A stretch of 64,000 nt of DNA from Gammaproteobacteria bacterium (GCA_965198875.1 CBDAPU010000001.1:1544996-1608995); one strand, 5' to 3'. Positions 6,181-64,000 are shown, counted from the stretch's first letter. Numbers and translations are program-made. The notes: generated by a model not told the origin, from the letters alone.

Positions 6181-6933
6181 TTACTGCACAGACAAGGCGT
6201 TATCGATAACCAGCTCCTCGCCATTGATAAAACGCGACTCATCGCTGGCCAGAAACAAAACCAGATTAGCGACATCCTCGGCAGCGCCAACCCCGATTAG
6301 ATCCGCCTCCCCGGAGGGTTCCAGCCCCAGCATGGCATTGGCCTGGGTCACCATTGGGGTATCCATGGAGCCGGCATGGACAGAATTGCAGCGGATATTG
6401 TATTTGTTCATCTGGCAGTGAACGGCGATGGATTTGGTCATGGATCTGACCGCACCTTTTGCTGCGCTGTAGGCAAAGAAAACAGGATAACCCAGGTGAG
6501 AGGCAATGGACGACATATTAATAATGGAGCCGCCACCACTGCGCTGCATTAACGGGATGGCTGCTCTGCACCCTAAAAATACACCCTCGGACATAACCGC
6601 ATTGGCACGCCTGAACTCATCCAGCGTTGTCGTCTCGGGAGTGGCGACGATGACGATGCCGGCGTTGTTCACCAGAATATTCAACCCCCCATAACGCGCC
6701 TGCACCTGCTTGATGGTATCTTCCCATTCAGACTCACGGGTGACATCCTGCCTGATGAAAACGGCCTCACCTTTTAACTCTGATTTTATGTGATCGGCCA
6801 CTGCCTGACCGGCGTCATTTATATCGGTCAACACGACGCTCGCCCCCTGTCTCGCCAGCAAAATGGCGTCCGCCTTGCCAAGACCTGACGCCGCCCCGGT
6901 CACCAGCGCCACTTTATTCGTCACTCTACCCAT
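6181..6933 (-). CDS. short-chain dehydrogenase/reductase (SDR, 3-oxoacyl-ACP-reductase-like)
   Basis: KVALVTGAASGLGKA...NNAG...YSAAK motifs. Start ATG at 6933 gives MGRVTNK; the longest ORF extends to 6972. Confidence 0.75.
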   Translation of the reverse strand: MGRVTNKVALVTGAASGLGKADAILLARQGASVVLTDINDAGQAVADHIKSELKGEAVFIRQDVTRESEWEDTIKQVQARYGGLNILVNNAGIVIVATPETTTLDEFRRANAVMSEGVFLGCRAAIPLMQRSGGGSIINMSSIASHLGYPVFFAYSAAKGAVRSMTKSIAVHCQMNKYNIRCNSVHAGSMDTPMVTQANAMLGLEPSGEADLIGVGAAEDVANLVLFLASDESRFINGEELVIDNALSVQ

Positions 6934-7110
6934 AGCAGGGCTCCATTTTGAAAGATGAGCAAAGCGTATCAATGCACAAACAGGCTTGCAAACTATAACA
7001 GGATTTCACTTGTGATGTTGCATGTCAGCGGGTATAAAATGCTGAGTGGGTCTCGATGCGATACGGAAATAGTTAAGGAAACAGCCTCATAAAACACTAC
7101 CCAGGATAAA

Positions 7111-7767
7111 ATGGCTAACGCTGATAATGCCAATAAACCCCGGCAAACACCCAAAGGGCCGGGGGATGCTGGCTGGCAGGCACATAAAAGCTCAAACACC
7201 AGAGATCAGATCCTGGAGGCGGCGATAAAGTGCATTGTTGAGATGGGCTACGCCAACACGACGACAATTAAAATTGCCGAGCGGGCGGGATTATCGCGGG
7301 GTGCGACACTGCATCATTTCCCATCCAGAATGGGGATCATTCGTGCGGCAGTGGATTACCTGCATCAAAAACGCCTGCGTGCGTTTAGAAAATCCGTCGC
7401 GCATATTCCCAAAGATGTTGATCACGTAAAGATGGCGGTGGAATTTTACTGGGCACATGTTACACACCCCTTGTATGTTGCCTTCTTCGAGCTATCGGTG
7501 GCCGCCAGATATGACAGGGAATTGCGAGACATACTGCGACCTGCACAACAGGCGTTCGATGATGAATGGTATAAAACAGCGCAGGAACTGTATCCTGAAT
7601 GGCAATCAGACACAGATGCCTTTGATCTCGCCCTCAACTTGTCACAGCACTTAATGGAAGGCATGGCGATCAGCTATTTAACCCATGCCAGGGATGATAA
7701 AAAGGAAGTACTGCTCCAGTATCTGGAAAACAGCATTCGCTCCCTTGCACCTGATGAGGGAAGATAG
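7111..7767 (+). CDS. TetR-family transcriptional regulator
   Basis: N-terminal HTH (RDQILEAAIKCIVEMGYANTTTIKIAERAGLSRGATLHHFPSR). Divergent from the SDR-Rieske-E1-E2 operon. Confidence 0.8.
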   Translation: MANADNANKPRQTPKGPGDAGWQAHKSSNTRDQILEAAIKCIVEMGYANTTTIKIAERAGLSRGATLHHFPSRMGIIRAAVDYLHQKRLRAFRKSVAHIPKDVDHVKMAVEFYWAHVTHPLYVAFFELSVAARYDRELRDILRPAQQAFDDEWYKTAQELYPEWQSDTDAFDLALNLSQHLMEGMAISYLTHARDDKKEVLLQYLENSIRSLAPDEGR

Positions 7768-15984: not shown

Positions 15985-16428
15985 GCGGATGCGCTGGAAC
16001 AGGGCACTGACTACTAGCACCCTGTGAGCGGCCAGGGAGTAGAAAATAGCCGCCACCGAGCGGTGTTCTTTCTGGCTGTCCTTTTTCCTCTGCGCCCTTC
16101 TCCTGACATCTGCCTTCGACACGGGGCAGTATCACCAGCCAGGCTTTGTCCGCTGTGCCCGTTGAGGGACAGAAAGAAGCCCGTCTTGCTGTTTGGGCGG
16201 TGGCTTTCATATTTAGGCGATGGTGGATTGTGGGTAAGTGCCTGCCCTGCAAATAGGATTGCGGGTTTAATGGGAGATACAATCCATTTCGGCTCTCCGT
16301 CCCCTTCCCTGCGTCTTCTGTCTTCCCTCCTCGGTTAGGTATATCATTGTTCTATCATCTGCCATCCCGGGCGCTTCGCTGCGCCGGGATAAAGAGACGG
16401 ACTGCGAAAATAACAAAACAACACGCCC

Positions 16429-58083: not shown

Positions 58084-58518
58084 TTAATGATTAACGGTGA
58101 TTTTTTTAGCTTGCTCCTTCTCTTGCTTGGGTATGGAGATCTCCAGCACACCATGTTTACCGCTCGCTTCAATTTTTTCCTCATCCACACCGTCAGGCAA
58201 ACTGAATTGACGATAAAAAGCGCCTCGCACCCTTTCTATCTTTTTATACCCATTCTTCTCTTCGCCCTGCTCATGCTCACGCCCACCTTTCAGGCTAAGC
58301 ACACCATCCTCCGTGGTAACGTCAATATCCCGAGGGTCCACACCCGGCAGATCGACCAGGATAAGAAAACGACTCTCCTCTTCTTTCACATCCACAGCAG
58401 GTCGCCAATGACCGCCAATGGCTCTCGATTGCGGCCGCGCTTTAAGCCCATGGAAGAACGACTCGGCCAGACCCAGCCTGTCAACAAAATGAAATGGTTC
58501 ATAACGAATGAATGACAT
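58084..58518 (-). CDS. ibpA: small heat-shock protein (Hsp20/alpha-crystallin, IbpA-like)
   Basis: MSFIRYEPFHFVDRL... alpha-crystallin domain ...GVLEISIPK... 144 aa from the ATG at 58518. The longest ORF to 58692 has an unlikely 58-aa leader. Confidence 0.85.
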   Translation of the reverse strand: MSFIRYEPFHFVDRLGLAESFFHGLKARPQSRAIGGHWRPAVDVKEEESRFLILVDLPGVDPRDIDVTTEDGVLSLKGGREHEQGEEKNGYKKIERVRGAFYRQFSLPDGVDEEKIEASGKHGVLEISIPKQEKEQAKKITVNH

Positions 58519-58553
58519 ACTCTCTCTCCAGAATGAAATTATCTTGAGAACCC

Positions 58554-58581
58554 ATATAGGGCCGTACATCAAAAAATCAAG
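58554..58581 (-). promoter_or_regulatory. sigma-32 (RpoH) heat-shock promoter for ibpA
   Basis: The minus strand reads CTTGATT-N13-CCCTATAT (consensus CTTGAAA-N13/14-CCCCATNT). Its -10 element ends ~36 nt upstream of the ibpA ATG; GGAGAGAG Shine-Dalgarno. Confidence 0.5.
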
Positions 58582-58648
58582 CCTCCGACCCATTGTGATG
58601 CACCAGACATGTTGATGGATTAGGCGTGGTTTTAAGTGAATGATGTTG

Positions 58649-58887
58649 TGTACACCTTCGGGAAGTCGCCTGATGGCAACAGACATATTCATTTGATGAA
58701 GATACGTTAAACTTGTGCATACCTTCGGGGTGCCGCCTGATGACAGCTATTCAATCCCGTGTCTGAACCTGCATCTCATTAGGCGGTGTTCATGCTGCAG
58801 ATAGTGATGTTGTCGGCGGGGGCTCTTCTATGCGAAGACAAGCGACAACCACATCCAAATCGAGATAGTGATGTTACCGGCGGTGGG
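58649..58887. repeat. two different tandem repeat pairs (66- and 64-bp periods) upstream of ibpA
   Basis: GTG(T/C)A(C/T)ACCTTCGGG(A/G)(A/T)G(T/C)CGCCTGATG(G/A)CA at 58649 and 58715. (C/G)AGATAGTGATGTT(G/A)(T/C)CGGCGG(G/T)GGG at 58798 and 58862. A related CCGTGTACCCTTCGGCATAAGC lies at ~57975. Confidence 0.65.
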
Positions 58888-59020
58888 ATATTCTATATTC
58901 TTCCATGTCTTTCGATCAGCGAGCGTCCACCTCGGCTCATCATCATGACTTGACGGCCTGCCCGGCGTGGACGAGCCGCATCGCCCTCGTTGCCTGATCA
59001 AGAAAAAGCCATGCCTTGAA

Positions 59021-59665
59021 TTAAATCCAGTAAGCCGTAGTCGTCATCACCCTGGCGCAATAACCCATGCTCACCTTGACGGGCTCCGGTAACTCGGCGG
59101 CGCCGGCCGCCAACGCATCCCCTGCATGTGTTAATTCATCCTCGCGGATCTGCTCTAAAATCTGCCTGCTCTTATGATCGTTTTCCGGTAACTGCGAAAG
59201 ATGCCTATCCAGATGGGCGACCACCTGACGTTCTGTTTCAAGCACAAAACCCAAACTCCACTTCTCTCCCAGCAAACCGGCCATTGCGCCAATCGCAAAT
59301 GATCCCGTATACCAGATCGGATTAAGATAACTGACATGACTGTTTAATGCGACCACCCGCTCTTCACACCAGTGCAGGTGATCGCGCTCCTCGGCTGCGG
59401 CCTGTTGCAGGGAATGACGCACCCCGGGCTCTTTCGCCACCAAAGCCTGACCTGCATACAGGGCCTGTGCGGCCACCTCCCCGGCATGATTAACACGCAT
59501 CAGTCCTGCTGAATGACGTCTTTCAGATCGCGCTAAGGGTTGCTCTTCCTCACCGCTGGCAGGGCTTGGGCGCGCCGGCTGGCCATGTTTGGCGAAGATA
59601 GCCGAGAAGGCCCTATCAAGGCCCATGATCAGCTCATCGACTGAATTGAACGTGCGTTGACCCAT
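59021..59665 (-). CDS. coq7: demethoxyubiquinone hydroxylase, Coq7 family (di-iron)
   Basis: Di-iron carboxylate motifs (E...EERDHLHW; E...DELTHAG). The RVNHAGEVAAQALYAGQ block matches Pseudomonas Coq7. Start taken at MGQRTF (59665). Confidence 0.8.
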   Translation of the reverse strand: MGQRTFNSVDELIMGLDRAFSAIFAKHGQPARPSPASGEEEQPLARSERRHSAGLMRVNHAGEVAAQALYAGQALVAKEPGVRHSLQQAAAEERDHLHWCEERVVALNSHVSYLNPIWYTGSFAIGAMAGLLGEKWSLGFVLETERQVVAHLDRHLSQLPENDHKSRQILEQIREDELTHAGDALAAGAAELPEPVKVSMGYCARVMTTTAYWI

Positions 59666-59768
59666 GCCGGGATTGTTGAAAAAAATCGCTGGAAAGTCCA
59701 GATTTATTGACACAAAAGAGGGCAGTCCGTACCATTGCTTCTTTTTTTTCGCCGTCATCTAACACACA

Positions 59769-60197
59769 ATGAAGACCTACACCGCAACACCATCGAAGAT
59801 CAGGCGTAATTGGTATCTTGTGGACGCCAGAGGAAAAGTCCTGGGAAGACTGGCTTCCAAAATCGCCCTTCGCCTGCGCGGGAAACACAAACCCGAATAC
59901 ACCCCAAACATGGACACGGGCGATTACATCGTCGTGATCAACGCCAGGGAGGTTCATGTCACCGGCAATAAGGCGAAGGATAAAATCTACTACCGTCACA
60001 GCGGCTATCCCGGGGGCATTAAGTCAACCCGCTTTGAGAAGCTGATGCAGTCAAGACCTGAGCGTGTTATTGAAAAAGCCGTGAAGGGCATGTTGCCGAA
60101 AGGCCCGCTGGGGCGTGAGATGTTTCGCAAACTACGTGTGTATGCGGACGGGCGTCATCAACATGCAGCACAACAACCACAACCCCTGGACATTTAA
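59769..60197 (+). CDS. rplM: 50S ribosomal protein L13
   Basis: [20 protein letters not shown]... Confidence 0.95.
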
Positions 60198-60199
60198 TC

Positions 60200-60592
60200 A
60201 TGGCGGAGAACATTTACTACAGCACCGGTCGCAGAAAAAGCGCCAGCGCACGGGTTTATCTCAAGCAAGGCACGGGCAACATCGTGGTGAATAATCGTAC
60301 ATTGGATCAGTATTTCGGTAGAGAAACCGGCAGGATGATCGTCAGGCAACCTTTAGAGAAGCTCGATATGATGCAACACTTTGACATTAAAGTGACCGTG
60401 GCGGGCGGTGGTATTTCAGGTCAGGCCGGCGCTATCCGCCATGGGATCAGCCGGGCGCTCATCAAATATGACGAAACCTTACGCAAACCCCTGCGTCAAG
60501 CGGGCTTTGTCACGCGCGATGCAAGAGAAGTCGAACGCAAGAAAATCGGTCTGCACAAGGCTAGGAAACGACCGCAATACAGCAAACGTTAA
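60200..60592 (+). CDS. rpsI: 30S ribosomal protein S9
   Basis: ...[16 protein letters not shown]...[11 protein letters not shown]. Confidence 0.95.
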
Positions 60593-60860
60593 GCCCTTAC
60601 ATCATCTTGACCCTTATCTGCCCATCATCGTGCGCCGATGTGGGCTGTTTTATTGCGGCAGTGGATAGCATATAAAAACACATGTCGGCTGAAAAAGTCG
60701 GCGAAGGAATAACTTTTATCGCTCATGATGATGTGACTAAAATCAAGGGAAAAGCGTGAATGACATGCCGGTAATAAAAGTGTTATCACGATCATCATGA
60801 TCAGTTGAGATAACATCAGGAGAGTCTGCGCCAGGTGAAGGCCATCAAGCTATGAGGGAC

Positions 60861-61020
60861 GAGGCAAAGTGGATGTATGCGGGACTTGCGAGAGCATCAT
60901 CATGTGACGAAACAGGCAGAGCGAGCGCAAAGCTGGGGGCTCACGCCAAGCGGGCGTCAAGTCATAGGTCAGAGGCGAAGTGGACGGTCGCGACTTGGCG
61001 AGACCATCATCATGACCGGG
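60861..61020. repeat. two ~49-bp direct repeats (111-bp period) GAGGC(A/G)AAGTGGA(T/C)G...GACTTG(C/G)CGAGA(G/C)CATCATCATG(T/A)(G/C)AC downstream of rpsI
   Basis: Copies at 60861 and 60972. Each contains the shared CTTGCGAG..CATCATCATGAC motif also seen at 31410 and 31475. Confidence 0.65.
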
Positions 61021-61643
61021 CATTGTTAAGAACACTCTATCAATGCCCGCTGTTCGAAAGGCATAGATGACTGGCGAGACGATCAGCATAGTACGTCCTT
61101 TCTACCCCTCAACGGGCACATCGGATAAAGCCTGCCCGGTATCGCAGACAGATGATCGCACCGAGCAGGTATTTCTTTAGCGAGAGGCGAAATGGATTAT
61201 ATTCCCTTTAAACCTGCAAATCTATTTGCTAGGCAGGCACTTACCCACAATCCGCCACTTCTCAATGGGGGGTGACTATCATTTTGAGACAGGGGGAAAT
61301 GGACAAAAAACGGCGGAAAGCCAGTGTGGGTAAGGGTTTGGGGGATAGGGGGTGGAAATAAAAGAATCACTCATTTTGCGACAAAAATACACTTTTATGT
61401 CACAAAAATGTGCATTTAATGTTCCAGAATGTCTACTTTATCCCCCTTAAATCCACCAAAATGATCATTTTAATGGCGGTTAAAGGGGATTTAATCGGGT
61501 TTTATGATGGGTTTAATGCTACACTGAAGGCATGCCGCATGAGGCTGAAAAATCGCCGCTGACAGCCATGAGCCCATCTTTGGCCTCTGTATGCGGGGGT
61601 GCCAGGCATAGTGACCTGGATGGCGTCCCGCCATGCGGCACAC

Positions 61644-62882
61644 TCATAGCTTCCCTATTACTTGTTCGTACACATTCTCATCTTTGAGATTTCTAATCGG
61701 CACCATGCCACCTGAGCGGACACTGTTGGTGATTTCGCCTTTATCTTTGAAGTTGACGCGGACTACAAACTTACCTAAGTGCTTCTCCCGAACTGCATCA
61801 AAGACATAAAACAAAGCGGGGTCTACCTTATCAAACAGCACGGCCTGTGGTTTTTCGATGTGCCTGGATAATTTTAGTAGCTCATCTGTCGGGATGTCCT
61901 TTTTGATACGCTTTTTCAAGTCTCTGACCATACGTCTCAGGCGTGCATCGGTCAGGGTAATCGCCAGATTCCGAGGCGCCATACCCCGCTGCTCCAAAGC
62001 CGCTACGACATCCTTATCCAGGTAGCCCACCACCACCTGTTTGTTTTGTACCTGATAGTCCTCAGCCAGTACCTGCTCTGCCCAGCGCTGATACGGCCGA
62101 TGCAGGTGGCGGGCGAAGCCAGGCAACTGTTCCAGGGCGGCGTCACGCAGGGCTTTGGGCAAGCTGGCGAGCCTTTGTCCGAAGACACTCTCCGGGGCCA
62201 GCCAGGCCTTGCCGACATTGTAATCCCAGCCCACACCAATGCCTTTGGGCACAGCGCCATAGACCTCGCCGGTGCGGGCATTGATGCGCTCCGTCCTATG
62301 CAGAGGTGGGGCCTGGCTAACCTGCTTGCCTTCCCGTTCTAGCTGACGTTGGCTTAGGGTGCGTACTGTGCAGCGACAGCCGAAACCATTCGGGGGGTAG
62401 TGGGTATCCCAGAAGGGGTCATCAAGGGCTAAGATGAGCCCGTGCCAGGCTCGATGCTCTGGCCGGACGCGGCTATCGCCCACCGACAGGTATTGCAGAT
62501 AAGGCCGTGTCTCTTTCGTGCGTTGCATCTGCTGCCAGCGACCGGCCATAGAGGCGCTACGCATGTTGTTATCGAAGATGATGCGGCTACGCCAGCCACG
62601 TTTGCCCTTGTAGCTCCAGCCGTATCGCTTGACGATACGGTCGAAGTCCTTACGGAAGTCGGTAATCGTGCCACCGGCTTTCCGGGTCTTTATCAGCGCT
62701 TGCCTGAAGTCACCCACCATCGCCACTTTGGTCGCCCCGGCCACTGCAAAGGCTTTGGTTCTGATATCACCCAGCAGGTCATCCCAGTGCCTGGTGGGGA
62801 GATCGAGCTTATCCTTGAGATAGGCAATGGCCTCCGGGAAGGGGACAGCGCCGAGCTTAACGTCTGGCATCGGTGGACTCAT
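61644..62882 (-). CDS. phage head-morphogenesis protein (Mu gpF / SPP1 gp7 family, PF04233-like)
   Basis: Signature block VGDSRVRPEHRAWHG...DDPFW..HYPPNGFGCRCTV (R..PEH...HG...W...PP.H..CRC). 412 aa. Confidence 0.75.
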   Translation of the reverse strand: MSPPMPDVKLGAVPFPEAIAYLKDKLDLPTRHWDDLLGDIRTKAFAVAGATKVAMVGDFRQALIKTRKAGGTITDFRKDFDRIVKRYGWSYKGKRGWRSRIIFDNNMRSASMAGRWQQMQRTKETRPYLQYLSVGDSRVRPEHRAWHGLILALDDPFWDTHYPPNGFGCRCTVRTLSQRQLEREGKQVSQAPPLHRTERINARTGEVYGAVPKGIGVGWDYNVGKAWLAPESVFGQRLASLPKALRDAALEQLPGFARHLHRPYQRWAEQVLAEDYQVQNKQVVVGYLDKDVVAALEQRGMAPRNLAITLTDARLRRMVRDLKKRIKKDIPTDELLKLSRHIEKPQAVLFDKVDPALFYVFDAVREKHLGKFVVRVNFKDKGEITNSVRSGGMVPIRNLKDENVYEQVIGKL

Positions 62883-63081
62883 CCATGCCGCTAAGATAGG
62901 CGGTAGACAGGCTAAGCTGAATGACTTGCGCTAAGGCCGTCTCATCGAGCTCCGGCAGCAGTGCTGGCAGGGCGGCCTCGAACTCATCGAGGGACTTGCC
63001 TTGCCTCTCAAACTCAATCAGCGTGTCATAGATAATGCCGGACACGGCGCCGTGCAGCCGGGTGAGACCCTGGAACTGCAC
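62857..63081 (-). CDS. 74-aa ORF immediately 5' of the Mu-F-like gene; possible C-terminal remnant of a portal gene
   Basis: GTG start; an in-frame stop lies 8 codons upstream, so it cannot be longer. In Mu-like modules the portal gene precedes gpF. No direct homology visible. Confidence 0.2.
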   Translation of the reverse strand: MQFQGLTRLHGAVSGIIYDTLIEFERQGKSLDEFEAALPALLPELDETALAQVIQLSLSTAYLSGMDESTDARR

Positions 63082-63191
63082 CCCCGCCAGGCGGTGTTTC
63101 TCTTAACCACCGGGGTGATTGAGAAAGCGCAGACCACAGCGCCCCCCGCTAAAACAACCCGCAAAGGCGCTCAGCCTAAGGAGACGAGAAC

Positions 63192-63491
63192 ATGACCAGG
63201 TATGACCTGCTGCCGCGCACCGCTGAGGGTGAGGTGGATGTGGAGAAGGTGCAATTCCCGATCCATCTGCCGCTACTCTCACCGATTACCGTCAATGGTG
63301 AGGCCATCGATGAGTTGGTGCTCCGTGAACCCAACATCAACGATATGGAGATCGCCGGACGGGAGAAGTCGGACATCCTCAAGATGCGCTGTCTCATCGC
63401 CCAGGTGGCCGAGCTTAGCCCGGATGAAGCGGGCCTGATTGGCGGGCGAGATACCCGCCGCTTAAATGAGTTGCTTGCCCATTTTTTATGA
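63192..63491 (+). CDS. P2 gpE-like tail assembly chaperone (E)
   Basis: 99 aa; ...ITVNGEAIDELVLREPNINDMEIAGREKSD...LIAQVAELSPDEAGLIGGRDTRRLNELLAHFL matches the short gpE/gp41-type tail chaperone pattern. It ends in the slippery heptamer T_TTT_TTA. Confidence 0.6.
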   Translation: MTRYDLLPRTAEGEVDVEKVQFPIHLPLLSPITVNGEAIDELVLREPNINDMEIAGREKSDILKMRCLIAQVAELSPDEAGLIGGRDTRRLNELLAHFL

Positions 63492-63631
63492 TGAACACTG
63501 CCGCCTTACGCCCGCTCATGGCCAATCTGGCGGCAGTGTTTCACTGGCAACCCTCGGAGATCAAGCGCTTAAGTCTGTCCGAGCTCAAGGCATTCCACGA
63601 CCTGGCCGCCGAGCGTAGTGGGGGCGGCTAA
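63192..63631 (+). CDS. tail assembly chaperone E' (E extended by programmed -1 frameshift)
   Basis: A -1 slip on T_TTT_TTA (63482-63488) continues ...AHF-FMMNTAALRPLMANLAAVFHWQPSEIKRLSLSELKAFHDLAAERSGGG* to the stop at 63629-63631. Combined length ~145 aa, the same size class as P2 E+E' (142 aa). Confidence 0.5.
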
Positions 63632-63879
63632 TCGCCCCCCAGGGTCAGCGCCATACCCATGAGACCAATAAATACGAGTAGAGCAAACCAGATCCCGAGA
63701 GTACCCACCAGCATGGCGGCGATCACATCGACACTCAGCCAGTCGACGTCCCCCGGCGGTAAGTGGATAAGCCACCAGGTGGCCACCGCACTGAACACCG
63801 GCAACAGATACATAAGCGCCATAAAGGCCATGTATTTGCAGCGGGCGATGATATAGGCAAGGTCATGGGTCGTGAACAT
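63628..63879 (-). CDS. 83-aa two-TM membrane protein encoded antisense between E' and the next tail gene (hypothetical; may be spurious)
   Basis: Two strongly hydrophobic helices. No family assignment. Location is unusual for a tail operon. Confidence 0.2.
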   Translation of the reverse strand: MFTTHDLAYIIARCKYMAFMALMYLLPVFSAVATWWLIHLPPGDVDWLSVDVIAAMLVGTLGIWFALLVFIGLMGMALTLGGD

Positions 63880-63899
63880 ACTTGCCAGTATAGCATCTC

Positions 63900-64000
63900 A
63901 TGAGTGAATTACACATCAGCCTGGTCATCGAGGCCTTGGACCGCTTCAGCGCGCCGGCGCGCAAGGTAGCGAAGGCGGGTGAGATGATGGCGGCCAGATT
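63900..64000 (+). CDS. 5' end of a large ORF, positionally the tail tape-measure protein (gpT-like), running off the window
   Basis: ATG at 63900 reads MSELHISLVIEALDRFSAPARKVAKAGEMMAAR... with no stop before the window end. It follows E/E' as T does in P2-like tail clusters. Confidence 0.3.
   Translation, partial: MSELHISLVIEALDRFSAPARKVAKAGEMMAAR

Follow-up and report, generated by a model that had tools for sequence, protein, structure and literature searches.

A probable internally deleted Mu-like prophage with a P2-type tail chaperone gene and putative -1 frameshift site downstream of rplM-rpsI

Overview of the element

Examination of a window of 64,000 nucleotides from a gammaproteobacterial genome (GCA_965198875.1, CBDAPU010000001.1:1544996-1608995; this whole stretch is the window below) indicates that positions 61266-64000, along with the sequence beyond, very probably belong to an internally deleted, defective Mu-like (transposable) myovirus prophage, of which they form the left part. 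The region following rpsI is an ordinary decaying prophage, and neither a new mosaic nor a tailocin. The original prediction of a phage-derived region is upheld, in that all the ORFs it listed are present where it placed them with family support, and its reading of a prophage remnant is borne out by sibling copies of the element, a left terminus and a deletion joint. The siblings (L001/L002, L003, L176 and L177) occupy four different host contexts. The features are as follows:

61266-61643, no strand: non-coding left terminal region of the transposable prophage, beginning TGGGGGGTGACTATCATTTTGAGAC (four-copy alignment)
61279-61290, minus: subterminal repeat GTCTCAAAATGA, a candidate transposase-binding site (at most one mismatch to GTCGCAAAATGA)
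61371-61382, minus: second subterminal repeat GTCGCAAAATGA, exact match (motif scan and copy alignment)
61644-62870, minus: intact gene for a minor head protein of the MuF / SPP1 gp7 family (start ATG at 62870 for 408 aa, or at 62882 for 412 aa)
62857-63047, minus: portal (Mu gp29-type) pseudogene remnant, last 62-63 codons (homology to the L003 portal; phrog_113 at 1e-5)
63037-63048, no strand: deletion joint with ~12 nt of microhomology, TG(G)CCGGACAxGG (three-way comparison with L001 and L003)
63049-63195, plus: 3' part of a small ORF truncated by the deletion (alignment with L001 9798-10004 and L003)
63192-63491, plus: gpE-type tail assembly chaperone, 99 aa (PF10109, phrog_166)
63482-63488, plus: slippery heptamer T_TTT_TTA (X_XXY_YYZ phase of the E frame, with the E stop TGA directly after)
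63488-63631, plus: E' extension in the -1 frame, 47 codons (PF06528 Phage_P2_GpE, phrog_6416)
63493-63541, plus: possible stimulatory hairpin with a 13-bp stem, 4 nt 3' of the heptamer (prediction)
63628-63879, minus: hydrophobic 83-aa ORF between E' and T, antisense (intact in three copies)
63900-64000, plus: 5' end of the tape-measure gene (gpT), which runs past the window end (identity to L003 10413-11255)

Left terminus and host setting

An alignment of four copies with unrelated flanks (the window, L001, L176 and L177) shows that homology begins exactly at 61266, and the common left end of these copies, found at four unrelated insertion sites, starts with TG. The first ~300 nt of the terminal region (to ~61570) are far better conserved between copies than the adjoining MuF coding sequence (~85% identity), and its middle part, up to an invariant block, is variable; the MuF stop codon lies 378 bp from the terminus. 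Matches to the subterminal motif with at most one mismatch occur within the window only at 61279 and 61371. In L001 the same motif is found twice at the left end (minus strand) and once, inverted, at the right end (plus strand), which mirrors ~25 nt of the left end as an imperfect inverted repeat. L001 also displays a possible 5-bp target duplication (TTACA / CTACA, a 4/5 match).

As hallmarks of Mu-like prophages we considered a DDE transposase (with rve and Mu-transpos_C domains) together with a B-type ATPase, inverted subterminal binding sites, and insertion at unrelated sites with a 5-bp duplication. The transposase and the ATPase are absent from the window copy, where they fall in the deleted interval, and are present in the MuF arm of the sibling L177. 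The lack of A and B therefore marks the element in the window as a defective derivative.

The prophage would have inserted into intergenic DNA 3' of rplM-rpsI, such that the non-coding DNA to the left of the MuF gene comprises host intergenic sequence (60593-61265) followed by the prophage terminal region. What had been described as a ~1-kb AT-rich leader is thus correctly non-coding but consists of two parts of different origin, and is modestly AT-rich only at 61200-61600 (GC 0.44). The GC content of the prophage (0.58-0.61) against that of the host (~0.50) points to a foreign composition. The earlier description of the host as a Pseudomonas-type genome was too loose: the organism branches deeply within the Gammaproteobacteria, and no species representative has a HemL more than 73% identical to its own.

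The MuF gene and the portal remnant

Profile searches with the MuF product recovered Phage_Mu_F (PF04233, 75.4 bits against a cutoff of 29.6, 7e-21), phrog_220 (3e-96) and TIGR01641 (58.7 bits against a cutoff of 39.65), all in agreement with its initial assignment to the Mu gpF/SPP1 gp7 family on the minus strand. Its best match among known phages is the Curvibacter phage TJ1 protein (41% identity over 99% of its length), and the public protein P0002 is 100% identical to it. The start is likely to be the ATG at 62870 (408 aa), as judged from the same predicted start in P0002 and the sibling copies. Comparison with these copies yields dS values of 0.5-0.77 with dN/dS of 0.15-0.21, which implies that they descend from independent phage lineages and are not products of decay in situ. 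We also considered a MuF-fused polymorphic toxin, a class typified by a variable toxin domain C-terminal to the MuF domain and, in most cases, a neighboring immunity gene. This candidate was rejected: the whole 412 aa are collinear with ordinary phage MuF proteins (TJ1 residues 5-412; phrog_220 residues 10-379), and profile searches recovered only a sub-threshold MuF_C match and no toxin family.

The adjoining 74-aa ORF (62857-63081, minus strand), previously noted as a possible portal remnant, indeed preserves the C-terminal 62 residues of a Mu-type portal, with its residues 13-74 being 90% identical to residues 464-525 of the 525-aa Portal_Mu protein of L003. The 3' end of this remnant overlaps the MuF start by 14 nt, and complete portal-MuF pairs are seen in L003, L176 and L177.

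The deletion joint

The nucleotide homology of the portal side to the siblings ends at 63041-63047. Window segments 61270-63041 and 63037-64000 correspond to sibling stretches separated by 6.5 kb in L001 and by 8.3 kb in L003, and the microhomology at the joint is common to the portal side and the side 5' of gpE. The truncated small ORF following the joint is in its intact form 68-71 aa long and located between the tube gene and gpE in the siblings, where it shows weak PHROG matches of unknown function. Illegitimate recombination across the ~12 nt of microhomology would have removed everything between the last 62 codons of the portal and the small ORF 5' of gpE, leaving MuF facing E/E'/T. The anomaly in the window is an internal deletion rather than an inversion or a fusion of two phages.

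The left terminal region and its subterminal repeats are intact and highly conserved, genes for the transposition proteins A and B occur in sibling elements, at least one further MuF copy (P0009) is present in the source genome, and there are several independent internal-deletion derivatives. These observations might be expected of a non-autonomous, "mini-Mu"-like derivative that kept both termini and was moved or packaged in trans by intact sibling prophages of the same genome. We regard this as quite improbable: the window copy is visible from its left end only, to 64000, no deletion joint is common to two copies, contrary to what amplified mini-elements would display, and an intact helper in the source genome would be hypothetical. 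Moreover, retained ends are equally expected from random internal deletions.

Sibling copies and the ancestral gene order

The siblings supply much of what the window copy has lost. In L177, A (rve and Mu-transpos_C), B, Gam, GemA, a lysin, a holin, TerS, TerL, the portal and MuF lie on one strand and are followed by host genes. L001 contains an S24 repressor, a chimera of the head protease and the sheath, the tube, E, E', a T::D fusion and Dam, and L003 contains the tube, E, E', an IS-disrupted T, U, X and D. Together, the sibling tail arms run in the order sheath, tube, E, E', T, U, X and D up to the right end, and their sheaths are ~48% identical to P2-like sheaths, which vindicates the recognition of a P2-like tail module from the window alone.

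From these we reconstruct an ancestral phage in which two arms would have diverged from a central repressor/ner region. Its leftward arm would have encoded ner, a DUF3102 protein, the transposase A, B, Gam, GemA, lysis genes, TerS, TerL, the portal and MuF, its end lying ~380 bp short of the left terminus. The rightward arm would have encoded the S24 repressor, the head protease, capsid genes, P2-like baseplate and fibre genes, sheath, tube, E/E', T, U, X and D, with or without Dam after D, and ended at the right terminus. We assembled this map from three siblings with different deletions and from intact relatives at a greater distance; a wholly undeleted copy of precisely this lineage, combining the Mu-type arm with the P2-type tail arm, was not recovered.

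MuF is likewise the terminal gene, on the minus strand and opposite the capsid and tail genes, in the phages KS10, TJ1 and vB_PR2c, and the head module has been described as interrupted in KS10 (PMC2628397). In IMG/VR relatives the genes from A through MuF are collinear with MuF at the contig end, and intact contigs of 38-41 kb code for a head protease (phrog_976, 7e-80) and the major capsid protein on the strand opposite MuF. A terminal MuF on the opposite strand is therefore the native layout and no evidence of rearrangement. The proposal that the opposite orientation of the head and tail genes betrays a rearranged or composite element is not supported in view of this layout and of the matching terminal repeats on both arms.

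A fusion of two unrelated remnants, one a head fragment of the Mu-like and the other a tail fragment of the P2-like type, does find some points in its favor: the head-packaging genes are of the Mu type and the tail genes are nearest to P2-like phages, the nearest MuF-bearing and the nearest sheath-bearing viral contigs have no contig in common, and the two arms differ strongly in between-copy identity (~85% as against 97%). It is nevertheless improbable, given that three copies, each with its own internal deletion joint, have both arms side by side and identically oriented relative to one another. Furthermore, their outer ends form an inverted-repeat pair with common subterminal motifs, L001 shows the possible 5-bp duplication, the split layout is native to the above phages and intact relatives, and a Mu-type capsid assembly module is already known alongside a P2-type tail in BcepMu. 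What the difference between the tail arm (96-98% identical between copies) and the MuF arm does indicate is recombination or gene conversion between phages or copies, and some mosaicism in the phage population is real.

Relationship to known transposable phages

Our preferred reading, that of an internally deleted Mu-like prophage with a native split layout, can be set against several characterized phages. In the Mu-like transposable myoviruses with an interrupted head module (Burkholderia phage KS10, Curvibacter phage TJ1 and Burkholderia phage vB_PR2c/vB_D1), gene 1 is MuF, encoded on the minus strand at a distance of 175-370 bp from the left terminus. As in the present lineage, the portal, TerL, TerS and lysis genes of KS10, TJ1 and vB_PR2c lie upstream of MuF on the same strand, and the capsid protease, major capsid and tail genes on the opposite one. 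However, these phages bear the transposase A/B and early genes on the tail arm, whereas here A, B, Gam and GemA are on the MuF arm. Their tails are of the Mu type (sheath, tube, chaperone, tape measure, N and P, then baseplate and fibres), unlike the P2-type tail arm seen here, which ends in U-X-D, and unlike them the window copy is internally deleted.

The Burkholderia phage BcepMu (Bcepmuvirus) is also transposable, and has a P2-type tail of FI, FII, E-like, T, U, X-like and D genes, with a programmed-frameshift chaperone pair 5' of the tape-measure gene. It differs in that only its early region is inverted, with lysis, terminase, portal and MuF genes on the tail strand, and V, W, J, I and H following D; in the present lineage MuF occupies the terminus on the strand opposite the tail arm, and the tail genes finish with D. 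Additionally, the E'-like frame of BcepMu is +1 relative to gp41, in contrast to the -1 frame here. Enterobacteria phage Mu resembles this lineage in having A, B, gam, gemA, lysis, terminase, portal (gp29) and F (gp30) genes on one strand, and termini that start with TG, with subterminal repeats and mutually unrelated insertion sites. In Mu, everything after F (G, I, T and the tail genes) is encoded on that strand as far as the right end. In the present lineage, by contrast, the genome ends after MuF, the post-F genes form a divergent arm beyond the repressor, and the tail is of the P2 rather than the Mu type.

Retention of a tail-derived machine

R-type tailocins are distinguished by a full set of sheath, tube and baseplate genes without head or packaging genes. 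In the window, no sheath or tube gene lies upstream of gpE, and MuF and the portal remnant are found instead. The suggestion of a tailocin-like cluster consequently fails, since the sheath, tube and everything else 5' of gpE are deleted and the head genes are still there. We accordingly consider it highly improbable that the host has kept a domesticated tail-derived machine (a tailocin or R-pyocin-like cluster), or a part of one. In three copies, E, E' and the beginning of T up to the window end are undisrupted and almost the same in sequence, with all substitutions in E' and T being synonymous, as such retention might predict; yet this pattern involves only seven sites and would also be expected of copies derived from phages that were active until recently. 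The transposition terminus persists in the window along with the head genes, the sibling tail arms stop after U-X-D with a truncated or IS-disrupted T and a chimeric sheath, and PADLOC returned no matches. Most likely, the genes surviving in this prophage, devoid of their operon promoters and partner genes, do nothing for the cell, although MuF, E and E' may have some residual function or expression, as their ORFs are intact.

The tail chaperone gene and its frameshift site

The assignment of a gpE-like chaperone is confirmed in both frames by matches above the respective cutoffs: PF10109 in the 0 frame (41.7 bits against 25, 1.2e-10) and PF06528 in the -1 frame (43.9 bits against 23, 1.7e-11), with E in reading frame 3 and E' in reading frame 2. 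The gpE product is 100% identical to that of L001 and 98% identical to that of L003. The tape-measure gene lies downstream, and the tube gene, deleted in the window, is directly upstream in L001 and L003. An intact -1 site and an E' product of ~145 aa, the size of its P2 counterpart, had been predicted; the heptamer is in phase, and the E+E' fusion is 146 aa long (142 aa in the P2-like phage L-413C) and aligns collinearly with gpE+E' of L-413C (E=7e-11). All four variable sites in E' among three copies are at third codon positions of the -1 frame.

The comparison with P2-type relatives extends this conservation: six diverged P2-like contigs (L168 and L170-L174) have T_TTT_TTG at the homologous ..xFL codons, as does L-413C at its F-L codons, where a -1 frameshift is annotated. 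The FI-FII-E-E'-T-U-D operon of P2 and L-413C is similar in having PF10109 in the 0 frame, PF06528 in the -1 frame, T_TTT_TTR at F-L codons and the tape-measure gene downstream, with the sheath, tube, U and D genes being kept in the siblings. The present gene differs in that its heptamer ends in A and is directly followed by the E stop, as opposed to 6-22 further E codons in the relatives, and in that its -1 frame opens with ATG ATG. Here, E' and T are separated by a 268-nt spacer with the antisense 83-aa ORF, whereas they overlap in L-413C; the upstream tube gene, present in P2 and L-413C, is deleted in the window.

In a functional phage, gpE and gpE+E' would both act as tail assembly chaperones, with E+E' arising from a -1 slip of ribosomes on T_TTT_TTA, at the two sense codons that precede the E stop. 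Such frameshifting would probably take place in E. The ATG ATG directly after the heptamer, which overlaps the E stop codon (ATGA), and the annotation of a separate 47-aa E' gene by gene callers could instead favor production of E' as a separate protein through termination-reinitiation without any -1 frameshifting. This appears unlikely, since no Shine-Dalgarno-like sequence precedes the E' ATG, the six relatives and L-413C have the heptamer at the homologous codons with no -1-frame start codon after it, and the fused protein is collinear with gpE+E'. The predicted peptide across the E+E' frameshift junction reads ..LAHFLMMNTAALR, and a reinitiation product would begin with Met-Met-Asn. The energy of the possible stimulatory hairpin is not significant relative to shuffled sequences (z = -1.4), and one of its stem pairs is broken in L003.

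The tape-measure gene and the antisense ORF

The long ORF starting at 63900 occupies the tape-measure position, as proposed, and its 33 visible codons specify a sequence identical to the start of the product of L003 10413-11255, which matches phrog_28 (2.4e-34) and TIGR01760. The antisense membrane ORF between E' and T is likewise present as described. It yielded nothing above threshold in Pfam and no match in PHROGs, NCBIfam or PADLOC, and its homologs are confined to these elements. About five of its seven variable sites among the three copies alter the amino acid. This putative coding sequence looks like a lineage-specific insert (moron).

Phage genes at the end of the window

Every ORF named in the original prediction was found in the window, each backed by family matches, and the gene content as read there is correct:

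Phage features of the window
MuF/gp7 minor head protein, minus strand, 412 aa: PF04233 (7e-21), phrog_220 'minor head protein and DNA pilot' (3e-96) and TIGR01641
Portal remnant, 74-aa ORF: residues 13-74 match the last 62 residues of a sibling's 525-aa Portal_Mu protein at 90% identity
gpE, plus strand, 99 aa: PF10109 (E/gp41/gp14 tail assembly chaperones), above curated cutoff
63482-63488, slippery heptamer T_TTT_TTA: phased as X_XXY_YYZ with respect to E, with the E stop codon directly after it
E', plus strand, 47-codon -1 ORF overlapping E: PF06528 (Phage_P2_GpE), above curated cutoff
Tape-measure 5' end, from 63900: 33 visible residues, identical to the start of a sibling protein

The sibling counterpart of the ORF starting at 63900 matches the tape-measure families phrog_28 (2e-34) and TIGR01760, and the GC content rises from ~0.50 in the host DNA to 0.58-0.61 over 62000-64000. 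ORFs inside 60593-61643 gave no Pfam matches, Rfam searches over 58500-64000 no meaningful match and promoter and terminator scans nothing better than background; no tRNA or tmRNA integration site was found.

Sibling copies and the termini of the element

Looking up exact and near-exact protein matches led to four related elements (L001/L002, L003, L176 and L177), all from one ENA assembly (ERZ25067590). Alignment of the DNA past the MuF stop in four copies with unrelated flanks revealed that homology starts abruptly at window position 61266, with a common left-end sequence opening TG(GGGG/TAGG)GTGACTATCATTTTGAGAC. Conservation over the first ~300 nt of the 378-nt terminal region is far higher than in the MuF coding sequence. 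Two copies of the motif GTC(G/T)CAAAATGA lie in this region; at up to one mismatch, the motif has no other match in the 64-kb window. L001 has this motif twice at its left end and once, inverted, right after its Dam methylase gene; the right end of L001, ..GTCAGGCTACA(C), is an imperfect inverted repeat (~25 nt) of the left end, and L003 has the same right end. The 5-mers on either side of the L001 element are TTACA and CTACA, and the one directly before window 61266 is CTCAA. The shared start, the motif copies and the inverted ends of L001 and L003 are hallmarks of a Mu-type transposable prophage; hence the arm that ends in MuF and the arm that carries the tail genes are the two ends of one element. 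By extrapolation from the siblings, the window copy is predicted to continue past 64000 with T (which may be truncated), U, X and D, Dam being optional, and to end in a right terminus that resembles ..GTCGCAAAATGAACGTCAnGCTACA and has a second CTCAA after it as target duplication.

These boundaries also redefine the non-coding 'leader' that had been described after rpsI as a single unit. Because homology among the copies starts at 61266, it comprises two separate things, namely host intergenic DNA (60593-61265) and the prophage terminal region (61266-61643).

Just 3' of the MuF stop, at 61593-61640, a ~45-nt block (GGCATAGTGACCTGGATGGCGTCCCGCCATGCGGC and neighboring bases) is near-invariant in the four copies, save that its first ~10 nt deviate in L176, while the bases around it are variable. 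It contains short palindromes (ATGGCG..CGCCAT) without a T-run, and may serve as a protein-binding or packaging site.

Internal deletions in the window copy and its siblings

Comparison of the window with L001 showed that 61270-63041 aligns at 85.7% identity and 63037-64000 at 97.9%, these segments being contiguous in the window, 6.5 kb apart in L001 and 8.3 kb apart in L003. The joint (63037-63048) consists of ~12 nt, TGGCCGG(A)CAGGG, shared by the portal flank and the flank 5' of gpE, which is the signature of a microhomology-mediated deletion. As a consequence the window retains just the last 62-63 codons of the portal gene, and fused to this remnant is the 3' portion of a small ORF whose place, in the undeleted layout, is between the tube gene and gpE. 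The locus is a clean example of prophage erosion via microhomology-mediated deletion.

Gene content of L001, L003 and L177
L001, first part: portal remnant, DUF3102-like, ner-like, S24 repressor, tyrosinase gene
L001, continued: 406-aa chimera ORF, tube, E, E', T::D fusion, Dam methylase
L003, one strand: Gam, GemA, lysin, holin, TerS, TerL, portal, MuF
L003, other strand: fibre fragment, tube, E, E', IS-disrupted T, U, X, D
L177: transposase A (rve + Mu-transpos_C), B, Gam, GemA, lysis genes, TerS, TerL, portal, MuF, then host genes

The siblings are themselves eroded, though at positions other than that of the window deletion, and none of the elements retrieved is a complete genome of this precise lineage. 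Precomputed public Phage_sheath Pfam matches would make L001 8037-9257 a plain sheath gene; this assignment was rejected, as the 406-aa product is an in-frame chimera of a head maturation protease N-terminus (187 aa; residues 13-187 match phrog_976) and a sheath C-terminus (217 aa; residues 188-404 match phrog_23). The chimera marks a second internal deletion in L001, and it follows that the apparent 'sheath' matches beside MuF in relatives from IMG/VR are protease matches. Further along, the 153-aa 'T' of L001 (10709-11170) joins the tape-measure N-terminus to the last gpD codons (compare L003 15268-15335), a deletion that took out most of T, U, X and D. Between the S24 repressor and the structural arm, L001 also has a tyrosinase-domain gene (6501-7547; PF00264), possibly a cargo gene (moron). 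A PADLOC defence search with this tyrosinase, MuF, gpE and the antisense 83-aa ORF found nothing.

IS elements of the DDE_Tnp_1 and IS1595 families are present in L003 (11775-12677, 15631-16296 and 16765-17724), where they split the tape-measure gene and adjoin the right prophage end. Taken with the multiple eroded prophages, they point to a genome that is rich in IS elements and in flux.

Divergence between the copies differs along the element. For MuF, dS is 0.5-0.77 and dN/dS 0.15-0.21, values which indicate that the copies diverged as functional phage genes and stem from separate lysogenisations rather than from duplication followed by decay on the spot. In the tail arm the copies share 96-98% identity, which implies recent exchange among phages or copies. 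The 2.41-Mb source contig (proteins P0009, P0124 and P0125) encodes at least one further MuF, P0009, which is truncated (309 aa) and 92% identical, so that the source genome holds at least two related prophage remnants. Exact-protein look-ups with MuF, its 100% identical public counterpart P0002, P0009, P0122, RpsI and the 83-aa ORF returned no record, and those with gpE and E' only the sibling contigs. Searches with gpE found nothing among genome contigs or viral contigs, and scanning metagenomes yielded one weak fragment; protein searches with the gpE+E' fusion and the 83-aa ORF retrieved nothing outside these same elements.

Opposed head and tail genes are native to the group

The opposite orientation of head and tail genes had been read as a sign of rearrangement. 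Among sequenced phages, MuF is most similar to the proteins of Curvibacter phage TJ1 and of the Burkholderia phages vB_PR2c and vB_D1. In TJ1, vB_PR2c and KS10, MuF is gene 1, on the minus strand, with 175-370 bp between it and the left end; it is preceded on that strand by portal, TerL, TerS and lysis genes, and capsid protease, major capsid and tail genes occupy the opposite one. For KS10, the interruption of the head module by this opposed-strand arrangement has already been described (PMC2628397). The IMG/VR relatives show the same layout. In the closest of them (MuF identity 38-54%) A, B, Gam, GemA, TerS, TerL, portal and MuF are collinear, and in many MuF lies ~0.4-1.7 kb from the end of a 37-45 kb contig. 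Walking leftward in two of these contigs, we encountered regulators and then a head protease (phrog_976, 7e-80) on the strand opposite MuF, followed in L182 by a major capsid gene, also on the opposite strand; the walk in L180 passed a repressor, an HNH-like gene and regulators, with no structural genes within the stretch reached.

Portal and MuF genes opposed to tail genes in Mu-like prophages should therefore not be taken as rearrangement, since an entire group among them is built so. The mosaic look of the locus is due to an already known native architecture and a single deletion, and a tailocin is ruled out for the visible part. The window locus is a Mu-like prophage remnant of the ordinary kind, with an internal deletion, and implies no new mechanism or system.

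The layout of the lineage is modestly novel, combining a Mu-ordered arm that ends in MuF with a divergent P2-ordered tail arm. In contrast to KS10 and TJ1, its early genes lie on the MuF arm and its tail arm is of P2 rather than Mu type; its sheath shares ~48% identity with Fels-2/RE2010-type sheaths, and its final genes are U, X and D. BcepMu likewise combines Mu-type capsid assembly with a P2-type tail, but in a different arrangement. The locus may point to an under-sampled lineage of transposable phages whose host is an uncultured gammaproteobacterium. We raise tentatively, as a rather doubtful extension, that these remnants and the IMG/VR contigs may represent widespread transposable myoviruses with a layout absent from the phage records examined (arm 1 with ner, A, B, gam, gemA, lysis, terminase, portal and MuF to the terminus; divergent arm 2 past the repressor with head protease, capsid and a P2-ordered tail to U-X-D-Dam), and that internally deleted derivatives retaining both termini, on this reading the window copy among them, could act as natural mini-Mu elements mobilized by intact siblings.

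Several IMG/VR relatives (L005, L006, L008 and L010; about 11.7-12.4 kb in each locus) have a Dam-like methylase gene after MuF at the terminus, whereas in L001 and TJ1 Dam is at the opposite terminus, on the tail arm.

The predicted E/E' frameshift

Across three copies, the variable sites of E' and T are all third-codon positions in their own frames (4/4 in E' and 3/3 in T). At the corresponding ..xFL codons of E, six diverged P2-like IMG/VR contigs from three lineages (E' 39-44% identical) carry an in-phase T_TTT_TTG, with E' in the -1 frame and no start codon after the slip site. The P2-like phage L-413C, with an annotated -1 frameshift, has T_TTT_TTG at ..GFL and a 142-aa product, with which the predicted 146-aa fusion of the window (junction peptide LAHFLMMNTAALR) aligns collinearly (E=7e-11). 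The original prediction had staked its reading of gpE and E' on homology of gpE to tail chaperones, which is present (PF10109), and on a -1 ORF conserved in relatives, as it is in the six contigs and L-413C; this part of its reading stands. The window heptamer differs from those of L-413C and the six contigs in ending in A rather than G and in abutting the E stop. With a slip site that touches the stop codon, the locus provides another, diverged case of the P2-type E/E' frameshift arrangement, which is conserved.

After the heptamer the -1 frame of the window runs ATG ATG, by virtue of which production of E' by reinitiation is a minor rival; the six P2-like contigs have no such start codon. 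A -1 slip is the preferred reading. A 13-bp hairpin 4 nt 3' of the heptamer is plausible as a frameshift element, though it is not significant against shuffles and is without covariation. In BcepMu (L175, 24602-25061) the frame of an E'-like (PF06528-like) sequence is offset by +1 from that of the gp41 chaperone ORF, as opposed to -1 in P2 and the window element.

Between E' and T the window has a 268-nt spacer filled by the antisense 83-aa ORF; P2-like phages are without such a spacer, and E+E' overlaps T in L-413C. Three copies have the ORF undamaged, and public annotation includes it among the genes; its homologues occur in these elements only, family libraries gave no match above threshold and ~5 of its 7 variable sites are nonsynonymous. 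A small membrane moron is one possibility, the other being that it is no gene at all.

Host DNA beside the prophage

The host is a deep-branching gammaproteobacterium, its HemL being at most 73% identical to that of any species representative. The intergenic DNA after rpsI includes a terminator hairpin near 60621-60655, spotted by eye. Just outside the prophage terminus, blocks at 61098-61140 and 61182-61257 share 86-87% identity with intergenic units at 16134-16297, 45 kb off, inverted and permuted in order; their appearance is that of REP/MITE-like repeats of the host. A weaker ~45-nt repeat (78-80% identity) recurs at 60861-60904, 60972-61014 and 58919-58969, in intergenic host DNA that follows rpsI and ahead of a COQ7-like gene.
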